A stretch of 64,000 nt of DNA from Nitrososphaerota archaeon (GTDB lineage Archaea > Thermoproteota > Nitrososphaeria_A > Caldarchaeales > Calditenuaceae). The position numbers were made by a program, and so were the translations under genes. The DNA lies in the NCBI GenBank assembly GCA_041641295.1, contig JBEPYO010000001.1, forward strand, positions 1,376,001 through 1,440,000, in the 5' to 3' direction. Below are positions 18,515 through 63,708 of this stretch, piece by piece (the first letter of the stretch is position 1; every line of letters begins with the position of its first letter). The notes under the pieces are model-generated. The model was not told the origin of the DNA and made no database searches. It saw nothing but the letters and a program-made list of their open reading frames with translations.

Positions 18515-19231
18515 CTACATGACGCCGGGGGTGCGGCCGCGTCTATACATTCTCTCTAACGCCCTAGCTGCCCTTATACGGTCTATCTCTTCGTCAAGCT
18601 GTGTGTAGTCGAGTGTGATGCCGAGTATCCTCGATAATACCTCGAGTACGGCCTTGGCGGCTGCGGGCTGCCTGATGTGTGGATCATTGATCTCGCCTAG
18701 CAGGCATGCACCCGTCAGACCGCGCTCCCGAGCAATACCTAGTAATAGGCCGTTGAAGCCCGTAATGTATCCCTCAGACTCTAGAGGCGTCGTGCCGTAA
18801 CTCCTTAGCTTCTCATCCATCGCGTCTGTCAGGGCTGCGTGAAAGACTCTTGGATGCTCTGTGAGTGCGTCTTCGTAGTGTGCCGCGCCAATCGTGTAAA
18901 CCTCCTCGACACCCGCCTGCTGCGCAATGTCCAGAACATTCTCGCAGAGCTCATATAGGAGGCTCGGCTCTGAGGGCTGATGCGTCCCAGTCATAGCGAT
19001 GAAGTTCAGTCCATCTCTAAAAAACAGCGTGTATTTCCCCCTCTCAAACTCTATGATCCCTTGTCTGTGAGTGACGAATGGTGGCCAAGTGTCAATACAT
19101 GTGGCGAATGGCTCAAGGCGCAGCTCACGTATCAGGTGCTCCATAGCTATTCCAGCTACATTGCCCATGTCGGGCAGCCCTGCCACTAGCTTGCTGACCC
19201 TCGTCGGAATTTGCGTAACTCTAAACTTCAT
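18515..19231 (-). CDS. PAC2 family proteasome assembly chaperone homolog
   Basis: 'GLPDMGNVAGIA', 'ITGFNGLLLG', 'CLLGE...PAAAKAVL'. Confidence 0.87.
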   Translation of the reverse strand: MKFRVTQIPTRVSKLVAGLPDMGNVAGIAMEHLIRELRLEPFATCIDTWPPFVTHRQGIIEFERGKYTLFFRDGLNFIAMTGTHQPSEPSLLYELCENVLDIAQQAGVEEVYTIGAAHYEDALTEHPRVFHAALTDAMDEKLRSYGTTPLESEGYITGFNGLLLGIARERGLTGACLLGEINDPHIRQPAAAKAVLEVLSRILGITLDYTQLDEEIDRIRAARALERMYRRGRTPGVM

Positions 19232-19329: not shown

Positions 19330-19764
19330 TTGGTGGGGGAGATGATAAGGATACCGCGCAAAGTGATTGACGAGCTGTATAATGATGTCTCGAGACGATA
19401 TCCTGAAGAGGCATGCGGACTCTTGGTAGGAAGACTCGACTCGGGTGTTAGAGTGGTAGGATATCTCGTTCCTGTGAAAAACTCCTACATCGGTGAGAAG
19501 AATAGGCGTTATCTGATTGACCCGCTCGAGTATATGCGGGTTGAGGATGAGGCTGCGTCGAAGGGTGAGATGGTGGTGGGGGTTTATCACAGCCACCCTG
19601 ACGCGCCAGCTATCCCGAGCAATTTTGACCATCTCAACGCCGTGCCTTTCCTGAGCTATGTAATTTTATCCGTTAGCCGTGGGAGGGTTGTTGAGATCTC
19701 TGCGTGGTTTCTGAACGAAGTGACTTGGAAGCTTGAGCGCGACTTGTTAGAAGTGGTGGAGTAG
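19330..19764 (+). CDS. JAB/MPN+ (M67) metallo-isopeptidase, prokaryotic type
   Basis: 'EACGLL', 'YHSHPDAPAIPSNFD'. Confidence 0.9.
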   Translation: MVGEMIRIPRKVIDELYNDVSRRYPEEACGLLVGRLDSGVRVVGYLVPVKNSYIGEKNRRYLIDPLEYMRVEDEAASKGEMVVGVYHSHPDAPAIPSNFDHLNAVPFLSYVILSVSRGRVVEISAWFLNEVTWKLERDLLEVVE

Positions 19765-26987: not shown

Positions 26988-27674
26988 TTGCCCGGCTTTA
27001 CAGGATGGCTAACCGAGAGAGGTAACACTCCCTCTCCACTATCGACTGGAACGACAACCGTGGGTTTCACCGCAGGCGACATAGTCGTCTTTGCTACGGA
27101 CAGTAGGGCGACTGCAGGCTTCTTTGTGGCGCATAGGAAGGCTAAGAAGGTCTACAAAATCGCCGACCACGCAGCAATGACGATAGCGGGAAGAGTCGCA
27201 GACGCCCAGAGCCTCATAGACCTTATGAGGGCGAACGCACGACACTACGAAGTCACCCACGGAAGACCCATTCAGATCAGGGCTCTCACCAGCCTCCTAG
27301 CCAACCTCATGTTCAGCTACAGGTGGCTACCGTTCCAAGCACAGATTCTACTGGGAGGCGTTGACGATAGTGGCGCCCACATCTTCAGCGTAGACCCCCT
27401 AGGCGGCTTCACAGAGGAGAAGATGGTTGTATCGGGCTCCGGGTCGCCTGTCGCCCTAGGCGTCTTGGAGTCCGAGTATAGGCCAGACCTAAGCCTCGAC
27501 GAGGCGATTAAACTGGCATTCAAGGCGGTGGCTGCAGCGATAAGACGCGACATAGGCTCGGGGGACAGCATAGACGTTGCATACATCTCGCCCGCAACTA
27601 TGTATAGGGAGCTAACAGTCCATGAGAAGGCTCCACTCTACGACCAATTCGTCAAACCCTACCTTCTCATGTAG
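26988..27674 (+). CDS. psmB: Proteasome subunit beta
   Basis: Propeptide then 'G|TTTVG', 'ATDSRAT', 'GSGS', 'RD..SG'. Confidence 0.95.
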   Translation: MPGFTGWLTERGNTPSPLSTGTTTVGFTAGDIVVFATDSRATAGFFVAHRKAKKVYKIADHAAMTIAGRVADAQSLIDLMRANARHYEVTHGRPIQIRALTSLLANLMFSYRWLPFQAQILLGGVDDSGAHIFSVDPLGGFTEEKMVVSGSGSPVALGVLESEYRPDLSLDEAIKLAFKAVAAAIRRDIGSGDSIDVAYISPATMYRELTVHEKAPLYDQFVKPYLLM

Positions 27675-55958: not shown

Positions 55959-56555
55959 TCAGAAGAGGGTCTCGAGGAGGATGATAAGTCCTGCAGCGGC
56001 TAGTCCCGCTCCTATCATTTGGCCTGCGGTTTTTAGCACATTTATCCCTGCGGCCCGCCCCACTATCGCGCCCGCTGCCAGTAGTAGGGCTGCGGTTACT
56101 GCGAGGGATGATATCAATCCATACACCGCTTCACCTCCCAAGTAGGTTGTTATCATGTAGGGTAGTGAAACGGTAAGCAGTGCTGCTACTGGTGAGAGTG
56201 CATTTACTAGGGCGACAAGAATCACCGCGATAGAGCCCACCTTGGTGTGGAGGGTGTTTCTCAAGGCTGTGAGCGTCGCCAGCTCAAGCCTCCTTATCCT
56301 AGCCTCCTGCTCTGCCTTCTCCGAGATTAGAGCCCCAGTCCACCCCGAGATAACCATGGCAATAACTACTGCGACAACCGTCTGGGCGATAACCCTGAAA
56401 GGGTGGGGACCTGATAGGTGGAGGCCGAAGACAAGTCCGACGCCCACCATTGCGCCGTCAAAGACCTGGAGAGAGAAATACCTTCTAGCAACACCGCGCG
56501 TCTCTGTGACAGCGAACACGGTCTTTAAACGATTGCGGAGCCAGCCGAAAACCAT
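55959..56555 (-). CDS. VIT1/CCC1-like membrane protein
   Basis: 'RRYF...FDG', 'GALISEKAE'; paired with DUF211. Confidence 0.75.
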   Translation of the reverse strand: MVFGWLRNRLKTVFAVTETRGVARRYFSLQVFDGAMVGVGLVFGLHLSGPHPFRVIAQTVVAVVIAMVISGWTGALISEKAEQEARIRRLELATLTALRNTLHTKVGSIAVILVALVNALSPVAALLTVSLPYMITTYLGGEAVYGLISSLAVTAALLLAAGAIVGRAAGINVLKTAGQMIGAGLAAAGLIILLETLF

Positions 56556-56564
56556 CGTAGGCCA

Positions 56565-56852
56565 CTACCTCTTCCGCTCTACCTTCTCCACGACAGTTGC
56601 GTCGACGCTGTGTATGGCTCCTCCCAAGGCCTTAATCGCCTCGCCTATCACTTCTACATCAAGGTCATTACCGTCGATGATCAGCTTGACTGTCTCGGTC
56701 TCCGCATCCATCTCGAGGACAGAGGAATCCACTCTCTTTACCCCTTTGACCCCTGCTAACCTCTTACTGAACTCGACAATATCCGGCTGGTGGGGTTTCA
56801 AGACGTCCAATACCAGCCTAGTGATCAGGACACTCTCACGGGCCTCCGACAT
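56565..56852 (-). CDS. DUF211 family protein
   Basis: 'RLVLDVLKPHQP...GGAIHSVD'. Confidence 0.9.
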   Translation of the reverse strand: MSEARESVLITRLVLDVLKPHQPDIVEFSKRLAGVKGVKRVDSSVLEMDAETETVKLIIDGNDLDVEVIGEAIKALGGAIHSVDATVVEKVERKR

Positions 56853-58160: not shown

Positions 58161-59327
58161 TTAGGATGAGGAGACTATCCTGATTGCTAGTGGCTCAAAA
58201 AGCCGCGTCGTAGAGACGTAGATAATATCCCTGTCCTTCACACCAACTTTGGCTAGTACGTCCTCGTCATCTAGTCTCCTCCCAGCGTATAACACTTCAG
58301 GGTCAGGGAATCCGAAGACGGATGCCAGTGTCTCTTTAAGCTTCAAGACCGTCTCATTCAAGTCAAACGAGAACTCGAGGGGGGCTGAGTGGTTTTCACT
58401 ACATACTATACAGTTTGGGTCTCGTGAAATTTTGACGCGGGAGAGGCGAGAGTTGAGGGCGTCATAAACGATGAGGCCTGTTGGCGGCTTTCCGAGACGC
58501 CCTTGATGAAGTATCTGCATGCCAATGGTTGTCATGATTCCGGCTACCACCGAGGCCACAGACTGGACCGCAGGCATAGGTGGCATTAACCGCGAACGCA
58601 ACTCCTCTATCAGTTTTAATATCTGGTCATCAGCCAGCTCGGCTATCATGTCTAGCCTAGTGTACTTTATGTCGTAGATTGTCTTTATATTGAGTTGGAA
58701 GAGCTTCTCAGCCTCCTCCAGCCCCACCGTGATTCCGTGCTCCTTTAGATCGTTGACGAGGTGCTCAGGCCTCCTCCTCTTAAGCGTGCATTCTGCCAGC
58801 TTCTCCTCTCTTGGTATGAGGTTTATGCTCTGGCACTCCAGGCATGCCGTCTTTCTTGGGAAAACCACTTGCACGTTTCCGTAAAACCCGTTCATGGCGC
58901 CGTCCACTAAGGGTTTTTCAAGGCTGACTGCAACGGAGTTCAGCCATCTCCTCGATGCCCAGTTGTCTAGGCATGAGAAGATTATGTCTGTCCTGCCGAG
59001 CACCTCCTCTCCTAGCTCTCTAATGTCTTGGCCGTAGGCCTCGACTGATACGTGGGGGTTGATCTCGCGTAGCCTCTCGGCTGCAACAACAGCCTTTCCC
59101 TTGCCTATGTCTTGGTCCCTGAATAGGAGCTGGCGGCTCAGATTGCTTAGCTCGACGTAGTCGTAGTCGGCGAGTATCAACTTGCCTACACCCATCATCG
59201 CGAGGTTCTTCGCCACTTCACCGCCTATGGCTCCGACGCCAGCAATAAATACGGTTGAGGATAGGAGGATGTTCTGGTCCCACCCCTCTACGCGGAGCTG
59301 CCGGTCGTACCTCTCCATTCCGGTCAT
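58161..59327 (-). CDS. Ubiquitin-activating enzyme E1-like (ThiF/UBA domain, catalytic Cys, C-terminal Ub-fold domain)
   Basis: 'RYDRQ', GVGAIG, 'SNLSRQLLF', CLEC..'ECTL', CIVC, C-terminal 'LYAGRRLDDEDVLAKVGV'. Confidence 0.93.
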   Translation of the reverse strand: MTGMERYDRQLRVEGWDQNILLSSTVFIAGVGAIGGEVAKNLAMMGVGKLILADYDYVELSNLSRQLLFRDQDIGKGKAVVAAERLREINPHVSVEAYGQDIRELGEEVLGRTDIIFSCLDNWASRRWLNSVAVSLEKPLVDGAMNGFYGNVQVVFPRKTACLECQSINLIPREEKLAECTLKRRRPEHLVNDLKEHGITVGLEEAEKLFQLNIKTIYDIKYTRLDMIAELADDQILKLIEELRSRLMPPMPAVQSVASVVAGIMTTIGMQILHQGRLGKPPTGLIVYDALNSRLSRVKISRDPNCIVCSENHSAPLEFSFDLNETVLKLKETLASVFGFPDPEVLYAGRRLDDEDVLAKVGVKDRDIIYVSTTRLFEPLAIRIVSSS

Positions 59328-59827
59328 ATCCCGGCAAGCTTCTCTAGGGACCGCTCCTGGGTTGCGTAGAGCCTGATATACTCTCTAACACGGGCCACAA
59401 AACGCTCGGGATATAGCTTCAGTTCCTGGGCTGCCCAGACGTTGAGTGGGTCATCAGGGTTTGGATTGGCGAGTAGGTTCTTCAGAGCCTCAATAACCGA
59501 GACAATATGCATGTTGGGATACCAGTCCTTATTCAGTATTGATTCGCAGATTCTGGCCGGCTCCTCATCCGTGAAGTTCGGATGCCATATCCGGGTGTGC
59601 CAGACCACCTCGGGGGGAACAAATGGGAATGAGCGCGGCAGAATAATCTCCACCACGAAAACCCCCCCATCATACACTCCGGAACCGATAATTATTCCCT
59701 TATAGTGTGTCAGGTCGCCGCCTACGGCGTCGAAGTTGGGCTCATAGTTCCTGATGAGCTGGTATTCTTGGGCCAGCCGCCTGACCCACCTGCTCTCAGG
59801 CAGATACCCAACCTCCGACGCCTCCAA
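59324..59827 (-). CDS. Ubiquitin-conjugating enzyme E2
   Basis: 'FPFVPP', 'WHPN', catalytic Cys in 'RICESIL', 'W.P', 'PNPDDPLN'. Confidence 0.96.
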   Translation of the reverse strand: MEASEVGYLPESRWVRRLAQEYQLIRNYEPNFDAVGGDLTHYKGIIIGSGVYDGGVFVVEIILPRSFPFVPPEVVWHTRIWHPNFTDEEPARICESILNKDWYPNMHIVSVIEALKNLLANPNPDDPLNVWAAQELKLYPERFVARVREYIRLYATQERSLEKLAGI

Positions 59828-59829
59828 AA

Positions 59830-60066
59830 CTACCCACCAACCGTCCTAGTAATCAAGACTAGCTTATCTCCCTCAGTAACTCCCGCGGACGATATTGTCT
59901 CAGAGTCGCTTAACGCCCTCCCCTTAAAAGTGAGCCTTGCATCCTCCGGCCTCAACTTCTTAATCGCGCAAACCCTCATCTTCACAGCACCGATGCTCGC
60001 GTTGGGCGGGACATCCAGTTCGATCGGTGGGCCACCACCCACCGCAGGAACTATTCTAATCTTCAT
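59830..60066 (-). CDS. Eukaryote-like ubiquitin, ending in free GG
   Basis: Beta-grasp 'RLTFKGRALSD.ET...GV..GDKLVL', ends RTVGG-TAG. Confidence 0.95.
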   Translation of the reverse strand: MKIRIVPAVGGGPPIELDVPPNASIGAVKMRVCAIKKLRPEDARLTFKGRALSDSETISSAGVTEGDKLVLITRTVGG

Positions 60067-60290
60067 ATTTCCCGCATCGCCTACTCCAGTTTATTGGATG
60101 GGCTATAAATAGATTAACTGTAGCGAGTGTGGTGTGCACATATACGTAACAAATACGCGCTCCGAAAAATGTGGTACAGCGTTGGGCTGCCCTTGAAGGG
60201 CTTTTAAAGGAATTGAGGCTTGTGGACCCAAGTGGAGGCCAGAGGGCTTGTAGGTAAGGGGTTTATAGGCAGGTAGTTACATGTTACGGG

Positions 60291-60908
60291 GTGAAAATGA
60301 GGGTTAGGCTGCTCCCGCCGGCGCTAGCTAAAATAATCAACCACGCCCTCTCCAACCCCAAGATCGAGGTGGCTGGTCTCCTTCTTGGGACTGAGGAGAA
60401 TGGGGTTGTAGAGGTGTGGGATGCTGTTACCGGCAGTCAGACCGGCTCCCCCGGCTTTGTCGTCCTAAGTGAGGAGGTGATGGCGAGGGTTGCGGAATTC
60501 CTTCACGATCACAAAATCCCCCTTTTTATCGTTGGGTGGTACCACTCCCACCCATCCCTAGGTCTATTCCTCTCCCCCATAGATATCAGGACACAGCTGA
60601 CATATCAGGCACTATACCAGAACGCAATAGCCCTAGTAATAGATCCCTCAAGATATGGAGGCTCTAAGAAGTTCTCGGATGGGCTATTCAAGGTCTTCAG
60701 AGTTGGGCCCAATAACCAAGTAATAGAGCTTCCAGTAACCTTCGGGGCTGGAACCCGTAAGATGCTAGAATCCACACTCATCAGCCTCACAACAACATCC
60801 ATCTTCCAATATGAAGAACATAACATGCCCGTCCCAAAACCCTTCAAAGTTATCAGTAACTTTCTATTACATGGCTTAAGGGCAGAGGGTGTTAGGAGGC
60901 ATGAGTGA
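60291..60908 (+). CDS. Rpn11-like JAMM/MPN+ deubiquitinase
   Basis: 'EVAGLLLG', 'VGWYHSHPSLGLFLSPID', 'ALVIDP'. Confidence 0.93.
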   Translation: MKMRVRLLPPALAKIINHALSNPKIEVAGLLLGTEENGVVEVWDAVTGSQTGSPGFVVLSEEVMARVAEFLHDHKIPLFIVGWYHSHPSLGLFLSPIDIRTQLTYQALYQNAIALVIDPSRYGGSKKFSDGLFKVFRVGPNNQVIELPVTFGAGTRKMLESTLISLTTTSIFQYEEHNMPVPKPFKVISNFLLHGLRAEGVRRHE

Positions 60909-61689
60909 TAAGAAGCGGATAGTTATCAAGAGGCGGCTAATACCTGAGCCTACCCAGCCAGAGCAGCAGGTAGGCGAACTCACAGGGGCACAGGAGGTTG
61001 AGAAGCAGGGTCCAGAGCCTCAGGAAATACAGGTACAGCCGACGGCCCAGCAGCCCACTGACAACTATGAGGAGGCAATTAAGAGTTTCGACAACATTCA
61101 AGCAAAGCTGAGAGAGATCCGGGAGATGGACCGCTCGATCCAGAGGGTTTTCAAGAAGTGGGATGAGGTTGACCTTCGCTCCGTGAAGAAGAAGCTCAAT
61201 CAACTCTCTGACGAGAGGAACGCCCTCTTGAGCGAGGCGCAGACCTGCGAGAATCTGCTTAACGAGGCTCTCGGCCTCTTAGAGTCGAGGATGAGTGAGC
61301 TGGAAGAGCAGCTTTTCGACAGGCTCGTAGAGGTTGAGTTCCTAAGGTCGCGGGAGAGCTCGCTGAGTGGGGCAGAGAGTGAGCGGCTAAAAGCACTGGA
61401 GGCCGAGGTTGAAGAGTATCGAAACAGGATTGCAGAGATTAAGAAGCAGATATCCGACCTCCAAGTGAAACTAGACAATATCAGGTCTCTGCCACGCACA
61501 ATAGTCAAGCTAACCACAAGCACAGAGGAGGCTGAGCCATTATACAAGGAGCTAGTGGCCAAATACAGGGACGAGGCCCGAGTAGCCTCCGCGATCGAGA
61601 AGATAATGCAGGACGAGGGTGTCTCGAGGCCCTACGCCATCATCCACCTCTGGAAGGCTGCACTAAAACCTCGGGTATCTGGGCAGTAA
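60901..61689 (+). CDS. Coiled-coil protein of unknown function
   Basis: Basic N-terminus, Q/E/P-rich linker, long heptad region, small C-terminal helical domain; overlaps Rpn11 stop. Confidence 0.8.
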   Translation: MSDKKRIVIKRRLIPEPTQPEQQVGELTGAQEVEKQGPEPQEIQVQPTAQQPTDNYEEAIKSFDNIQAKLREIREMDRSIQRVFKKWDEVDLRSVKKKLNQLSDERNALLSEAQTCENLLNEALGLLESRMSELEEQLFDRLVEVEFLRSRESSLSGAESERLKALEAEVEEYRNRIAEIKKQISDLQVKLDNIRSLPRTIVKLTTSTEEAEPLYKELVAKYRDEARVASAIEKIMQDEGVSRPYAIIHLWKAALKPRVSGQ

Positions 61690-61794
61690 TGGGGACAGGC
61701 GGCGGGGTCAAGACACTTTAAATAGAGCCTCCGACAAAGGATTTAGGAATACCCGGGGGATATCCTGGGGAGTTAAAAGACTTACTGTGTAAGG

Positions 61795-63708
61795 GTGGAA
61801 AATGGAATGCTATCCAAGCTGAGGGCAGACATATTCAACTACTTGGTTACACTGGGTAAGGGCGAGCGAGTAGTTACGCGGATAGATTTTGAAGGGCCTC
61901 GGATAGCGATATACACTGCAGAGCCCTCTGTTTTCGCAGAGAGGAACTCTATTGCTAGAGATCTTGTGAATTTGATCAAGAAGAGGGTGGTTATTCGGCC
62001 GGACGAGTCTATCAGGATGCCTCAGGATGAGGCTAAGAGGCTTTTGAAGGAGGCGCTGAACAACTCTCCTGCAAATATCACTTTTGACAACCTTCTCGGC
62101 GAGGTTGTGATTGAGAGTAGCGACCAGCAACTCTTCAACCTCCTGACTCCTGAGAGGTTGGCGGCCCTCGAGCGTCAGATAAACTGGCTGATCACGGTCT
62201 CAAGGACGCCACTTATTCCTTCAAAAACCTTAGAGAAGGTCAAGAAGTATCTCTATGGAGACGGCGAGGAGAGGATTGATATCCTGCGAAAGATTGGGGA
62301 GAGGATATTTAGGGAGCAGCTGTTTGAGCCGGGAGAGGTCTCGATAACCGTTCTTGGGGGTGGGATGCAGGTTGGGCGCTCCGCACTCCTAGTCAGGACG
62401 CGCGAGAGCTGTGTCCTGATGGATTTCGGCATAAGCGCAGGAGCGAGCAAGCCGGTGGAGATGCTGCCGAGGATGGACTTTTTCCCCGAATTAGTCGATA
62501 TGCTCGACGCTGTCATAATCACGCACTCACACATGGACCACCACGGCGCTCTGCCCTTCTTATTCAAGTACGGTTACCGGGGGCCAGTCTACATGACCGA
62601 GCCCACACTACCGCTAATGGTTATGGAGCACATCGACTATCTTAACCTGGCGGCTAAGACCGGGCAGTACCCACTCTACGGCGAGCACGAGGTCAGACTC
62701 GCGGCACGTCATGTGGTACCACTCCGGTACGGGGTTGTAACCAATATTACCCCCGACATCAGGGTAACATTCTACAATGCGGGGCACATTCTAGGCTCCG
62801 CCATCGCGCACCTACACATAGGCGAGGGATTCCACAACATAGTCTACACCGGCGACTTTAAGTATGAGAGAACACGTATGCTCGATCCCGCCACATCAAA
62901 ATTCCCCAGAATGGAGACCCTCATAATAGAAAGCACCTACGGAGCCACGCCCGTCCCCTTCACGAGGGAGGAGACTGAACGTATATTCGCAGAACACATC
63001 ACTCGCACGGTTAATTCGGGTGGTAGTGTCTTGATTCCTGTGCCGGCTGTTGGGAGGGCTCAAGAAATAATGCTGGTGATTAAGAACCTGATTGAGTCTA
63101 AGATGATTCCCGAGGTTCCGGTCATACTTGACGGCCTGCTGATAGAGTCTACATCCATCTACAGCTGTTTCCCTGAATATTTCTCGGCAGAGAGTCGTGA
63201 TGAGTTTCTGAGGGGTGACTCACTCTTCTTCTCCGACTATTTCATAAGCGTGAAGAGTCAGAGCCACAGAGAAGAGATACTTGAGAGCAGGGAGCCCATG
63301 ATCGTTATGGCTACATCGGGCATGCTTGAGGGCGGCCCTGTCCTCTCTTATCTGAGGAGCATGTCTGAGAGTGATAAGAACCTGCTGCTGTTTGTGAGTT
63401 ATCAGGTTGAGGGGACGCTCGGTAGGAAGATTCTAAAGGGCTTGAGAGAGGTCACGCTGATTAATGAGGAGGGGAAGCAGGAGGTGTTTAAGCTCGCCAC
63501 CGCTGTTGAGAAGGTTGATGGTTTCTCAGGACATTCTAGCAGGCAGCAGATACTCTCATATCTTAAGAGGGTTTCTCCAAAGCCTCAGAATGTCATATTT
63601 GTCCACGGGGAGCCGGAGGCCGTCAACTCGATTGCGGGGGCGGCCAGAAGGGTTTTGGACGCCGCCATATACACGCCGAGGAACTTGGACACAATAGTGG
63701 TCGGCTAG
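61795..63708 (+). CDS. aCPSF1/FttA beta-CASP ribonuclease with KH domains
   Basis: KH N-terminus 'EGPRIAIY', 'THSHMDH', 'NAGHILG', 'ESTYG', 'GFSGH', 'HGE'. Confidence 0.95.
   Translation: MENGMLSKLRADIFNYLVTLGKGERVVTRIDFEGPRIAIYTAEPSVFAERNSIARDLVNLIKKRVVIRPDESIRMPQDEAKRLLKEALNNSPANITFDNLLGEVVIESSDQQLFNLLTPERLAALERQINWLITVSRTPLIPSKTLEKVKKYLYGDGEERIDILRKIGERIFREQLFEPGEVSITVLGGGMQVGRSALLVRTRESCVLMDFGISAGASKPVEMLPRMDFFPELVDMLDAVIITHSHMDHHGALPFLFKYGYRGPVYMTEPTLPLMVMEHIDYLNLAAKTGQYPLYGEHEVRLAARHVVPLRYGVVTNITPDIRVTFYNAGHILGSAIAHLHIGEGFHNIVYTGDFKYERTRMLDPATSKFPRMETLIIESTYGATPVPFTREETERIFAEHITRTVNSGGSVLIPVPAVGRAQEIMLVIKNLIESKMIPEVPVILDGLLIESTSIYSCFPEYFSAESRDEFLRGDSLFFSDYFISVKSQSHREEILESREPMIVMATSGMLEGGPVLSYLRSMSESDKNLLLFVSYQVEGTLGRKILKGLREVTLINEEGKQEVFKLATAVEKVDGFSGHSSRQQILSYLKRVSPKPQNVIFVHGEPEAVNSIAGAARRVLDAAIYTPRNLDTIVVG

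Follow-up and report, generated by a model that had tools for sequence, protein, structure and literature searches.

A rearranged Caldiarchaeum-type ubiquitylation locus in the Calditenuaceae, with a conserved coiled-coil partner gene of the Rpn11-like protease

INTRODUCTION

The ubiquitylation system of Candidatus Caldiarchaeum subterraneum is the main experimental model for the origin of eukaryotic ubiquitylation. As described in the text of the genome report (Nunoura 2011, PMC3082918), its locus, CSUB_C1473-C1477, encodes an Rpn11-like protein, ubiquitin (Ub), an E2-like protein, an E1-like protein and a small RING finger protein. The system was reconstituted by Hennell James 2017 (PMC5654768), and its structures were presented by Fuchs 2018 (PMC6043591). 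According to the texts of these studies, Ub cut after the Gly-Gly was activated in vitro without Rpn11 (PMC5654768), and CsRpn11 was active alone (PMC6043591). The archaeal SAMP/UbaA/JAMM1 system of the Haloferax type shares with such loci an E1-like adenylating enzyme, a GG-ended beta-grasp modifier and a JAMM protease, but contains neither an E2 nor a RING protein.

Here we analyzed a 64,000-nucleotide stretch of DNA (the window) from an archaeon of the family Calditenuaceae (the host family), together with 41 genomes of the order Caldarchaeales. A preliminary description had placed a Caldiarchaeum-type Ub-E2-E1 operon with a divergent Rpn11 gene in the window, and had singled out a mature Ub, the lack of a RING gene and an extra gene as peculiarities of this copy.

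RESULTS

The locus encodes Ub, E2, E1 and a divergent JAMM protease

All genes of the locus were found where the preliminary description had put them (Table 1), and coordinates, Pfam matches and codon-level motifs agreed that Ub, E2 and E1 are tightly packed and that the divergent JAMM gene is intact. The Ub stop codon and the TTG start of E2 are separated by 2 nt, and translation of the exact codons confirmed that the E2 stop and the E1 start overlap (ATGA). On the other strand, the JAMM stop overlaps the ATG of a coiled-coil (CC) gene by 8 nt. Judged by profile scores, the family matches of the locus genes are far beyond chance; E2, for example, scored 96.4 bits against UQ_con (cut-off 27), a family with matches in 0 of 14 control genomes. 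The order Ub-E2-E1, the divergent JAMM gene, the catalytic residues and the ubiquitin-like domain of E1 are all the same as in C. subterraneum.

Table 1. Coordinates of the ubiquitylation locus and adjoining features within the window.
Feature	Position	Strand	Details
E1-like Ub-activating enzyme	58161..59327	-	388 aa; Pfam ThiF 4.4e-61
E1 C-terminal ubiquitin-fold (UBL/UFD) domain	58212..58376	-	residues 318-372
E1 Cys180 (in AECTL)	58788..58790	-	codon translated; invariant 14/14
E2 (UBC fold)	59324..59827	-	167 aa, TTG start; Pfam UQ_con 1.4e-27
E2 Cys94	59546-59548	-	confirmed at codon level; invariant 14/14 aligned
E2 HPN	59576-59584	-	confirmed at codon level; invariant 14/14 aligned
Ub	59830..60066	-	78 aa; Pfam ubiquitin 4.7e-12
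Divergent intergenic region	60067..60290	.	between Ub and JAMM; two TATA-like boxes
TTTATA	60109-60104	-	38 nt before Ub ATG
TTTATA	60262-60267	+	30 nt before JAMM ATG at 60297
JAMM ORF	60291-60908	+	opens at GTG 60291
Rpn11-like JAMM deubiquitinase	60297..60908	+	203 aa from ATG 60297; Pfam JAB 1.2e-16
CC ORF as listed	60889-61689	+	
CC protein gene	60901..61689	+	262 aa from ATG 60901; conserved downstream partner gene of JAMM
aCPSF1/FttA	61795..63708	+	NCBIfam equivalog TIGR03675 2.9e-220; neighbouring gene

From general knowledge of archaeal promoters, we take the two TTTATA boxes between Ub and JAMM to be promoter elements. The neighbouring aCPSF1/FttA gene, which scored 732.8 bits against TIGR03675 (cut-off 580.2) and contains KH, MBL, beta-CASP and RMMBL domains, lies beyond a 105-nt gap with a putative promoter of its own (TTTAAATA, 61717-61724) and probably forms a transcription unit separate from CC/JAMM. 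The window locus thus stands upstream of aCPSF1, the place of psmB in other families: psmB directly precedes aCPSF1 in four of four genomes of those families, and also in G009, a genome of the host family, in line with the earlier remark that psmB often holds this position.

E1 and E2 retain the sequence hallmarks of the cascade

Genome G024 served as the C. subterraneum-type reference, since its proteins fit the published C. subterraneum numbering (an 87-aa pro-Ub with a 9-aa tail; I30, W58 and R69 of srfp). Ub, E2, E1 and JAMM of the window are 69%, 57%, 46% and 45% identical to their G024 counterparts.

E1 comprises an adenylation domain, a Cys-bearing insert and a C-terminal ubiquitin-fold domain. 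Its GxGxxG loop, R6/Y7/R9/Q10, D121, C162/C165/C306/C309 and C180 are invariant in 14/14 aligned orthologues, and the AECTL, CLEC and CIVC motifs were confirmed by translating the exact codons. Cys180, which sits between two CxxC zinc pairs, is the probable thioester cysteine. The ubiquitin-fold domain (Pfam ubiquitin 2.9e-7, 30.6 bits, cut-off 25.4) was detected in all 14 aligned E1s; the legend of Fig. 1 in PMC5654768 points to an analysis that identified C-terminal UBL domains in archaeal E1-like proteins. Assignment of E1 to UbaA, ThiF or MoeB was rejected, its scores being below the equivalog cut-offs (106.4 vs 450, 140.1 vs 275 and 133.8 vs 266, respectively). E2 was found in 41/41 genomes of the order.

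Ub is encoded in its mature form throughout most of the host family

Translation of the exact codons showed that Ub ends in VGG-stop. The stop codon directly follows the GG, so Ub is encoded mature, unlike the pro-protein of C. subterraneum. The TRTVGG sequence is invariant in all 18 aligned Ubs, and a PDB sequence search returned C. subterraneum Ub-like chains among the best matches (6fj7, 1.5e-32; 2mqj), the top of the list being three long poly-ubiquitin chains ranked by summed repeats. We found a GG-stop Ub in 18/19 host-family genomes, the sole exception being G009, whose Ub has one extra residue. Outside the host family only 1 of 22 genomes encodes a GG-stop Ub, and the other 21 have tails of 2-20 residues. 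The mature end noted earlier is therefore real, but it is a trait of the host family and not special to this copy. The Ub pro-peptide is a variable trait of the Caldiarchaeum-type system, and its absence does not exclude membership.

The RING genes are located 85 kb away

The gene after E1 in the window is a convergent PALP-family gene, and the claim that the neighbourhood has no RING holds. It fails for the genome, which contains two RING genes above the Pfam cut-off (37.7 and 36.2 bits vs 27.3) on the same contig, 85 kb from Ub-E2-E1 (matches at C1:1348609-1348734 and 1350695-1350826). They encode a 249-aa membrane protein and a 68-aa protein (zf-RING_2, 36.2 bits) and are flanked by coiled-coil ORFs of 282 aa and 126 aa, giving a four-gene module of small RING, small coiled-coil, large coiled-coil and membrane RING. 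The genome thus resembles G024 in having two RING proteins and two further coiled-coil proteins, but in C. subterraneum the module abuts E1. It lies directly 3' of E1 in nine genomes, G024 included, and is contiguous with E1 in three families other than the host family, where no more than about 3.2 kb separates E2 from the small RING in 20/22 genomes. By comparison, none of the 19 host-family genomes has a RING gene near E2: in four it lies 76-311 kb from E2 on one contig, in 13 it is on other contigs, and two gave no small-RING match. In the eight host-family loci in which the gene after E1 was read, the window among them, it was unrelated in every case. The absence of a RING from the neighbourhood is a split of the locus, not a loss.

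The membrane RING was found in 41/41 genomes and a separate small-RING gene in 39/41, the two without it being 84% and 73% complete (G015 and G017). None of the eight zinc ligands varies among the 12 aligned small RINGs, and that of the source genome keeps the linchpin Arg (position CsR69). At the CsI30 and CsW58 positions, small RINGs outside the host family have Ile/Val and Trp (8/8); those of the host family have Ala/Val and Leu in 4/4 genera, with Ala and Leu in the source genome. The E2 side differs as well: loop 7 reads WYPN here vs WSPS or WRPG in eight aligned E2s of other families, with Asn at the CsS104 position in 6/6 aligned host-family E2s. In the in vitro experiments described in the text of PMC5654768, I30Q abolished and W58A impaired ubiquitylation by the C. 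subterraneum proteins, and a bulky polar residue at the E2 site (S104Q) impaired the reaction. The membrane RING of the source genome keeps the Ile (CMIC) and the Trp (NVWVDL). These substitutions suggest that the soluble RING and the host-family E2 may pair poorly, or that both sides may have co-varied; because they represent one evolutionary event, decay and co-variation are indistinguishable at this interface.

A coiled-coil gene accompanies the Rpn11-like JAMM gene

The divergent Rpn11-like protein has an intact metal site. Its JAMM motif, HSHPSLGLFLSPID, and Glu26 were confirmed at the codon level, and Glu26, His85, His87, Ser95 and Asp98 (60543-60584) are invariant in 17/17 sequences. 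The best PDB match was 6fju, annotated as '26S proteasome regulatory subunit N11-like protein' (1.8e-50); eukaryotic Rpn11/PSMD14 followed at about 5e-17, and then CSN5, BRCC36 and AMSH. The protein thus resembles Rpn11/PSMD14 of the eukaryotic 26S lid, its best match after the C. subterraneum protein, in its intact motif. Unlike eukaryotic Rpn11, which has Rpn8 as its partner, it is much shorter, is encoded without an MPN-minus partner gene, and has as its conserved neighbour a coiled-coil protein of no known family.

That neighbour, the CC gene, is not the addition that the preliminary description took it to be: it adjoins JAMM downstream on the same strand in 36/41 genomes, including G024. 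The gap from the JAMM stop was -8 to +50 nt at the 15/15 loci measured, with stop and start overlapping in the window and in all six host-family loci measured. CC stays beside JAMM where JAMM has left Ub-E2-E1, as in G008 (68 kb) and G034 (another contig). In G009 it is E2-E1 that lie apart, 11 kb from JAMM-CC and the Ub gene beside them. JAMM and CC are unlinked in all three genomes of genus g9, indicating that the pairing is not obligatory at the level of gene order. Searches of Pfam and NCBIfam with CC gave no family above the cut-off, and only 14 representatives were found at E<=1e-30 among 1.84 billion proteins. The structure model (mean pLDDT 83) consists of three long helices and a small C-terminal helical domain. 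CC is an order-restricted partner gene of Rpn11, undescribed in the texts of the three C. subterraneum studies, and it is the fresher lead of the locus. Binding of CC to JAMM, to which this gene order points, is a serious possibility that we place somewhat short of probable.

Synteny and phylogeny place the locus in the Caldiarchaeum-type class

The E1 tree set each of the four families apart from the rest by a single branch, with the host family as one clade (support 100/97), indicating vertical descent. The identities of JAMM, Ub, E1 and E2 drop with taxonomic distance. The assignment to the Caldiarchaeum-type class is thus borne out by both synteny and phylogeny across the 41 genomes. In the three other families, the genes are arranged as CC <- JAMM <> Ub -> E2 -> E1 -> small RING -> small coiled-coil <> large coiled-coil, membrane-anchored RING -> GlyRS. 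This ten-gene order would be the ancestral one, of which the left half (CC, JAMM, Ub, E2, E1) would now lie upstream of aCPSF1 and the right half (the E3 module) 85 kb off on the same contig. The window locus represents, in rearranged form, a known system that has been reconstituted biochemically. It is likely a Caldiarchaeum-type ubiquitylation system that is complete and was inherited vertically, its ancestral neighbourhood of ten genes having been cut in two in the host family.

DISCUSSION

If the system works like its reconstituted orthologue from C. subterraneum, Ub would be translated already Gly-Gly-ended, making Rpn11 processing unneeded, and would be adenylated by E1 and loaded onto Cys180. 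The ubiquitin-fold domain of E1 would recruit E2, Ub would pass to E2 Cys94, and its transfer to lysines would be directed by the unlinked soluble RING and the four-helix membrane RING, a pairing that is predicted to act across the two loci. The Rpn11-like JAMM would then be only an eraser or recycler, and CC would most likely be its non-catalytic partner, as a scaffold or a regulator. All enzyme activities of the locus are predictions from sequence.

The distance of the RING genes, the loss of the Ile and Trp contact residues from the small RING and the altered loop 7 of E2 would also fit a system in which protein tagging needs only E1 and E2, through E2-driven or auto-ubiquitylation, with the RINGs unrelated or only loosely coupled to it; C. 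subterraneum E1 and E2 auto-ubiquitylate in vitro without an E3, according to the text of PMC5654768. We consider this improbable, given that both RING genes are kept with their zinc ligands intact, that the linchpin Arg persists in the small RING and both contact residues in the membrane RING, and that the two-sided interface changes fit co-variation as well as decay. Much less probable still is a sulphur-carrier or SAMP-type system, made of a MoeB/ThiF-like E1 and a ThiS/MoaD-like carrier, instead of a conjugation cascade. The E1 adenylation domain does match MoeB, ThiF and UbaA models (E 1e-30 to 6e-41, far below the cut-offs), but E1 has a catalytic-Cys insert and a ubiquitin-fold domain and is translationally coupled to an E2 of the UBC fold that carries HPN and Cys, and the modifier matches Pfam ubiquitin, not ThiS. 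Better SAMP-type candidates exist in the source genome, namely a separate Prok-JAB gene (window 19330-19764) and a second ThiF-family gene (C1:1457752-1458459, 293.8 bits).

As for CC, it could instead serve the Ub system as a preferred substrate or an adaptor, or act in the cytoskeleton or in division (CdvA- or ESCRT-III-like) and have no more than the operon in common with JAMM; we regard this as rather unlikely. The top rows of the structure search included Snf7/CHMP4B hairpins, at a Z of about 10, and a filament of CdvA (9s9g), aligned over 130 residues with Z 10.3. The text of Nunoura 2011 (PMC3082918) reports CdvB and CdvC in C. subterraneum and the absence of CdvA, and according to that of PMC5654768 the C. 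subterraneum cascade ubiquitylated Rad50 coiled-coil lysines in vitro; the unlinked genes of genus g9 would fit as well. However, a Z of about 10 is in the range given by the common arrangement of helical hairpins, as the search tool itself notes, and the values of 10.2-10.3 for 9s9g and Snf7 tie with SMC coiled coils and designed bundles, with prefoldin also similar. Foldseek returned nothing for the CC model at E<=0.001 (best E 0.035), CC has no Pfam or NCBIfam relation above cut-off, and at locus breaks it goes with JAMM and not with the E1/E2 genes, consistent with a partner of the protease.

The published five-gene picture lacks four conserved neighbours, namely three coiled-coil proteins of no known family and the membrane RING. 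The locus tags CSUB_C1472, C1478, C1479 and C1480 turned up in no paper that we found. The article texts of Nunoura 2011 and Fuchs 2018 do not use the word "coiled", and that of Hennell James 2017 uses it for Rad50 alone; for the membrane RING, the text of Fuchs 2018 (PMC6043591) appears to mention only "a second E3 protein". Supplementary Fig. 1 of PMC5654768 and Supplementary Fig. 13 of PMC6053391 may show neighbours or other arrangements. Scans of local genes can falsely label archaeal operons as "RING-less" when, as here, the E3 genes have moved. The naturally occurring changes where E2 meets the RING provide an existing test case for co-evolution of the two surfaces.

In the host family, processing of the Ub pro-peptide by Rpn11 is dispensable in nature. 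The Rpn11-like protease is nevertheless present in 40/41 genomes of the order, which suggests that deconjugation is its conserved function. We raise as a possibility, judged less likely than not, that the order-restricted CC is a dedicated second subunit of archaeal Rpn11 in an eraser module that has a writer counterpart. The archaeal deubiquitinase would then already be a two-protein module of a catalytic MPN domain and a helical scaffold, comparable in function to Rpn11 in the lid helical bundle or to BRCC36 and its coiled-coil partners. With Ub made ready for use, the Rpn11-CC module would be purely an eraser, deciding where or when tags are removed; its counterpart, a writer complex located at the membrane, would consist of the membrane RING and the two further coiled-coil proteins.

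An intact locus of the Caldiarchaeum type

The preliminary description had placed a Ub-E2-E1 operon, a divergent Rpn11-like deubiquitinase (JAMM) and a coiled-coil (CC) gene in one interval of the window (G000:C1:1376001-1440000), and this interval of the window genome (G000; 1.56 Mb, 94% complete) was found to hold exactly those genes. Direct translation of the key codons gave HPN and Cys94 in E2, AECTL (Cys180) flanked by the zinc pairs CLEC and CIVC in E1, Glu26 and HSHPSLGLFLSPID in JAMM, and a VGG-stop C-terminus in Ub. The Ub stop codon is separated from the E2 start codon by 2 nt, the E2 stop and E1 start codons overlap in ATGA, and the end of JAMM overlaps the ATG of CC by 8 nt. The 224-nt spacer between the divergent Ub and JAMM genes carries TTTATA on either strand, 38 nt 5' of the Ub ATG and 30 nt 5' of the JAMM ATG, and from what is generally known of archaeal promoters we take the two boxes to be putative promoters. 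Scanning for sigma-70 promoters and terminators, with models that are ill-suited to archaea, gave counts no higher than the shuffle expectation. A search of G000 for a second Ub-like gene returned a single weak match (C1:627762, E 0.04), which was below the cut-off.

Features of the window and of compared loci (prefix L, locus numbering; unprefixed positions are window positions)
Feature	Position	Strand	Remarks
Ub	59830-60066	-	78 aa; Pfam ubiquitin 4.7e-12
E2	59324-59827	-	UQ_con 1.4e-27
E1	58161-59327	-	ThiF 4.4e-61; C-terminal ubiquitin-fold domain 2.9e-7
JAMM protease	60291/60297-60908	+	JAB 1.2e-16
CC ORF	ATG at 60901	+	262-266 aa; coiled-coil-type matches, all sub-threshold
aCPSF1		+	TIGR03675, 732.8 bits (cut-off 580.2)
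psmB	26988-27674	+	2.7e-55
PAC2-family gene	18515-19231	-	1.1e-38; proteasome assembly chaperone type
Prok-JAB protease	19330-19764	+	2.2e-21
DUF211	56565-56852	-	
VIT-like membrane protein	55959-56555	-	
Second beta-type proteasome subunit	G000:C1:1342652-1343281 (L057:1653-2282)		1.2e-50; outside the window
Insertion between E2 and E1, G031	L045:8653-10665		~2 kb
Family f2 JAMM	L031:6845-7645	-	
Family f2 JAMM	L032:6506-7288	-	
Genus g2 second pair, partial UQ_con protein	L039:7232-8050 (G008:C2)	+	272 aa; 3.4e-7; also G011, G013, G016, G017
Genus g2 second pair, JAB protease	L039:7914-8531 (G008:C2)	+	5.1e-16; also G011, G013, G016, G017

The closest solved relative of JAMM was the N11-like protein 6fju (1.8e-50), with eukaryotic Rpn11 far behind (~5e-17). 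JAMM also has a conserved helix at residues ~150-165. Ub matched the solved Ub-like chains of Candidatus Caldiarchaeum subterraneum at 1.5e-32, and three long poly-ubiquitin chains ranked just above them through summed repeats. UQ_con was present in all 41 genomes of the order and in none of the 14 control genomes. As a stand-in reference for C. subterraneum we used the genome G024, which encodes an 87-aa Ub in which Gly78 is followed by a 9-residue tail, and a RING protein of 75 aa with Ile30, Trp58 and Arg69, in agreement with the numbering in the texts of PMC6043591 and PMC5654768. The window proteins were 69% (Ub), 57% (E2), 46% (E1) and 45% (JAMM) identical to those of G024, and the E1 tree separated the order into its four families, with support of 100/97 for the home family (that of the window genome, 19 of the 41 genomes). 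The tree and the identities indicate that the window system is a vertically inherited orthologue of the system reconstituted in vitro. The locus is genuine and intact and belongs to a known kind of system, of which it is a rearranged variant with a ready-made Ub and an unlinked E3 (RING) module.

The text of Nunoura 2011 (PMC3082918) lists five genes and marks the flanking coding sequences as hypothetical, that of Fuchs 2018 (PMC6043591) mentions "a second E3 protein" beside the operon, and the legend of Fig. 1 in Hennell James 2017 (PMC5654768) refers to C-terminal UBL domains having been identified in the E1-like proteins. Hua 2018 describes, in its text, Ub, E1, E2, E3 and DUB from six Aigarchaeota bins, on the assumption that a pro-Ub is cleaved. 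Text searches of the literature found no paper on variants of the home-family type (mature Ub, unlinked E3 module) and none by the locus tags CSUB_C1472, C1478, C1479 and C1480.

Family-wide detachment of the RING module

The reported lack of a RING gene was correct for the window locus and incorrect for the genome, since two zf-RING_2 matches above the cut-off were detected in G000, both beyond the window, ~85 kb upstream of the operon. One is in a 249-aa protein that has hydrophobic segments and whose RING is C-terminal, the other in a 68-aa RING protein, and between the two genes sit coiled-coil ORFs of 282 and 126 aa. In G024 and the inspected genomes of the three other families, the four-gene module (small RING, small coiled-coil, large coiled-coil and membrane RING) directly follows E1 and is itself followed by GlyRS. 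GlyRS still adjoins the detached module of G000, indicating that the break in the ancestral neighbourhood fell between E1 and the small RING. This break is family-wide: none of the 19 home-family genomes gave a RING match near E2, the small RING sharing the contig of E2 in four of them, at distances of 76-311 kb, lying on other contigs in 13 and giving no match in two. Outside the home family, the small RING was within ~3.2 kb of E2 in 20 of the 22 genomes.

Other arrangements were also seen. In genus g9 (G037; L035, L053) the locus is cut elsewhere, between E2 and E1, so that E1 remains with the RING module, and the CC gene that elsewhere adjoins JAMM is 14 kb further downstream of the module. 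An insertion separates E2 from E1 in G031 (family f3). A DUF211 gene and a VIT-like membrane protein gene stand upstream of a PALP gene in the window, and the same pair adjoins the small RING in G008 (L048).

The small RING of the home family retains the linchpin Arg and the full set of eight zinc ligands, and it has Ala or Val at the position of C. subterraneum Ile30 and Leu at that of Trp58; loop 7 of the home-family E2 reads W-Y/F/H-P/A-N instead of WSPS. The membrane RING of G000 keeps both Ile and Trp. Among the C. subterraneum mutants reported in the text of PMC5654768, I30Q abolished ubiquitylation and W58A and S104Q impaired it. The interface changes represent one lineage event, which fits either co-variation of both sides or a looser grip of the small RING on E2.

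The Rpn11-like JAMM of family f2 is 260-266 aa long and has a strongly hydrophobic C-terminal stretch, which hints that this deubiquitinase, like the membrane RING, is anchored in the membrane. A second, divergent pair occurs in genus g2, where the gene for a protein that partially matches UQ_con precedes a JAB protease gene.

The site before aCPSF1

The preliminary description had remarked that the site before aCPSF1 is often held by psmB. In all four genomes examined from other families (G024, G020, G019 and G033), the gene for a beta-type proteasome subunit immediately precedes aCPSF1 in the same orientation, which bears out the remark. G009 of the home family retains psmB-aCPSF1, ~1 kb from E2-E1; in G000, JAMM-CC precede aCPSF1 and psmB is located elsewhere in the window. 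The 105-nt gap between CC and aCPSF1 contains a TTTAAATA box. The text of Phung 2013 (PMC3553952) makes no mention of psmB-aCPSF1 synteny, which was tested here on the genomes.

The window also contains a PAC2-family gene, divergent from a Prok-JAB protease gene, and psmB lies 7 kb beyond the latter; several proteostasis genes are thus no more than 45 kb away from the Ub locus. The gene for a second beta-type subunit and the detached RING/coiled-coil module are ~4 kb apart, and the orthologue of this subunit gene in G008 is ~2 kb from JAMM-CC.

Ubiquitin maturation

The window Ub had been described as mature, and its stop codon does directly follow GG. Examination of all 41 genomes showed that Ub ends in GG-stop in 18 of the 19 home-family genomes, the exception being G009 with one extra Arg, and in only one of the 22 others (G028), the remaining 21 having tails of 2-20 residues. 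Since G028 has lost the tail while its RING is still beside E1, tail loss occurred at least twice and independently of the locus split. According to the text of PMC5654768, C. subterraneum Ub truncated after GG was activated without Rpn11; by analogy, the home family should need no protease for Ub maturation. An Rpn11-type protease was nevertheless present in 40 of the 41 genomes and was not found in G018 (66% complete).

The coiled-coil neighbour of JAMM

CC had been regarded as an extra gene of this locus, a view that the comparison overturned: it follows JAMM, in the same orientation, in 36 of the 41 genomes, including G024. The five exceptions are all three genomes of genus g9, G015, in which both genes are at contig ends, and G018, in which neither was found. 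CC remains with JAMM where JAMM has parted from Ub-E2-E1 (G008, G034), and in G009 Ub, JAMM and CC are together with E2-E1 11 kb off.

Two stretches are conserved in the CC family, an N-terminal M-P/S-x-K/R-K-I-V-I-K motif and a C-terminal I-P-R-E-Y-A-I-I-x-x-W-K block, and its members also have an acidic low-complexity linker and long helices. An AlphaFold model from a 17-row alignment (mean pLDDT 83; 194 of 262 residues at 90 or above) has three long helices (52-86, 92-150, 157-195), and its C-terminal domain (residues ~225-255) is small and helical. Foldseek against the PDB gave no match at E<=0.001, the best being AhlC/ClyA-type bundles (E 0.035, TM ~0.3). In the VIA wide search many unrelated hairpins reached Z ~10 and nothing specific emerged, and the Atlas returned only generic coiled-coil look-alikes (feature score 0.75), EnvC/PcsB-type coiled coils at TM 0.5-0.6. 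When CC was compared by hhalign with the RING module's large coiled-coil protein, 47 columns aligned at a probability of 46.6%, which did not establish paralogy.

When 1.84 billion representatives were searched with the CC profile, only 14 proteins reached E<=1e-30, followed by a 40-aa fragment and coiled-coil noise, which indicates an order-restricted family. A search for JAMM proteins that carry a CC-like extension (357-2000 aa, E<=1e-10, 2260 candidates) produced one protein, a 578-aa Promethearchaeota MPN protein, the tail of which has no similarity to CC (hhalign probability 0.2%). Our best guess, from gene order and the start/stop overlap, is that CC is a putative partner of JAMM. The conserved coiled-coil neighbours, which are undescribed, together form the most useful lead from this locus.
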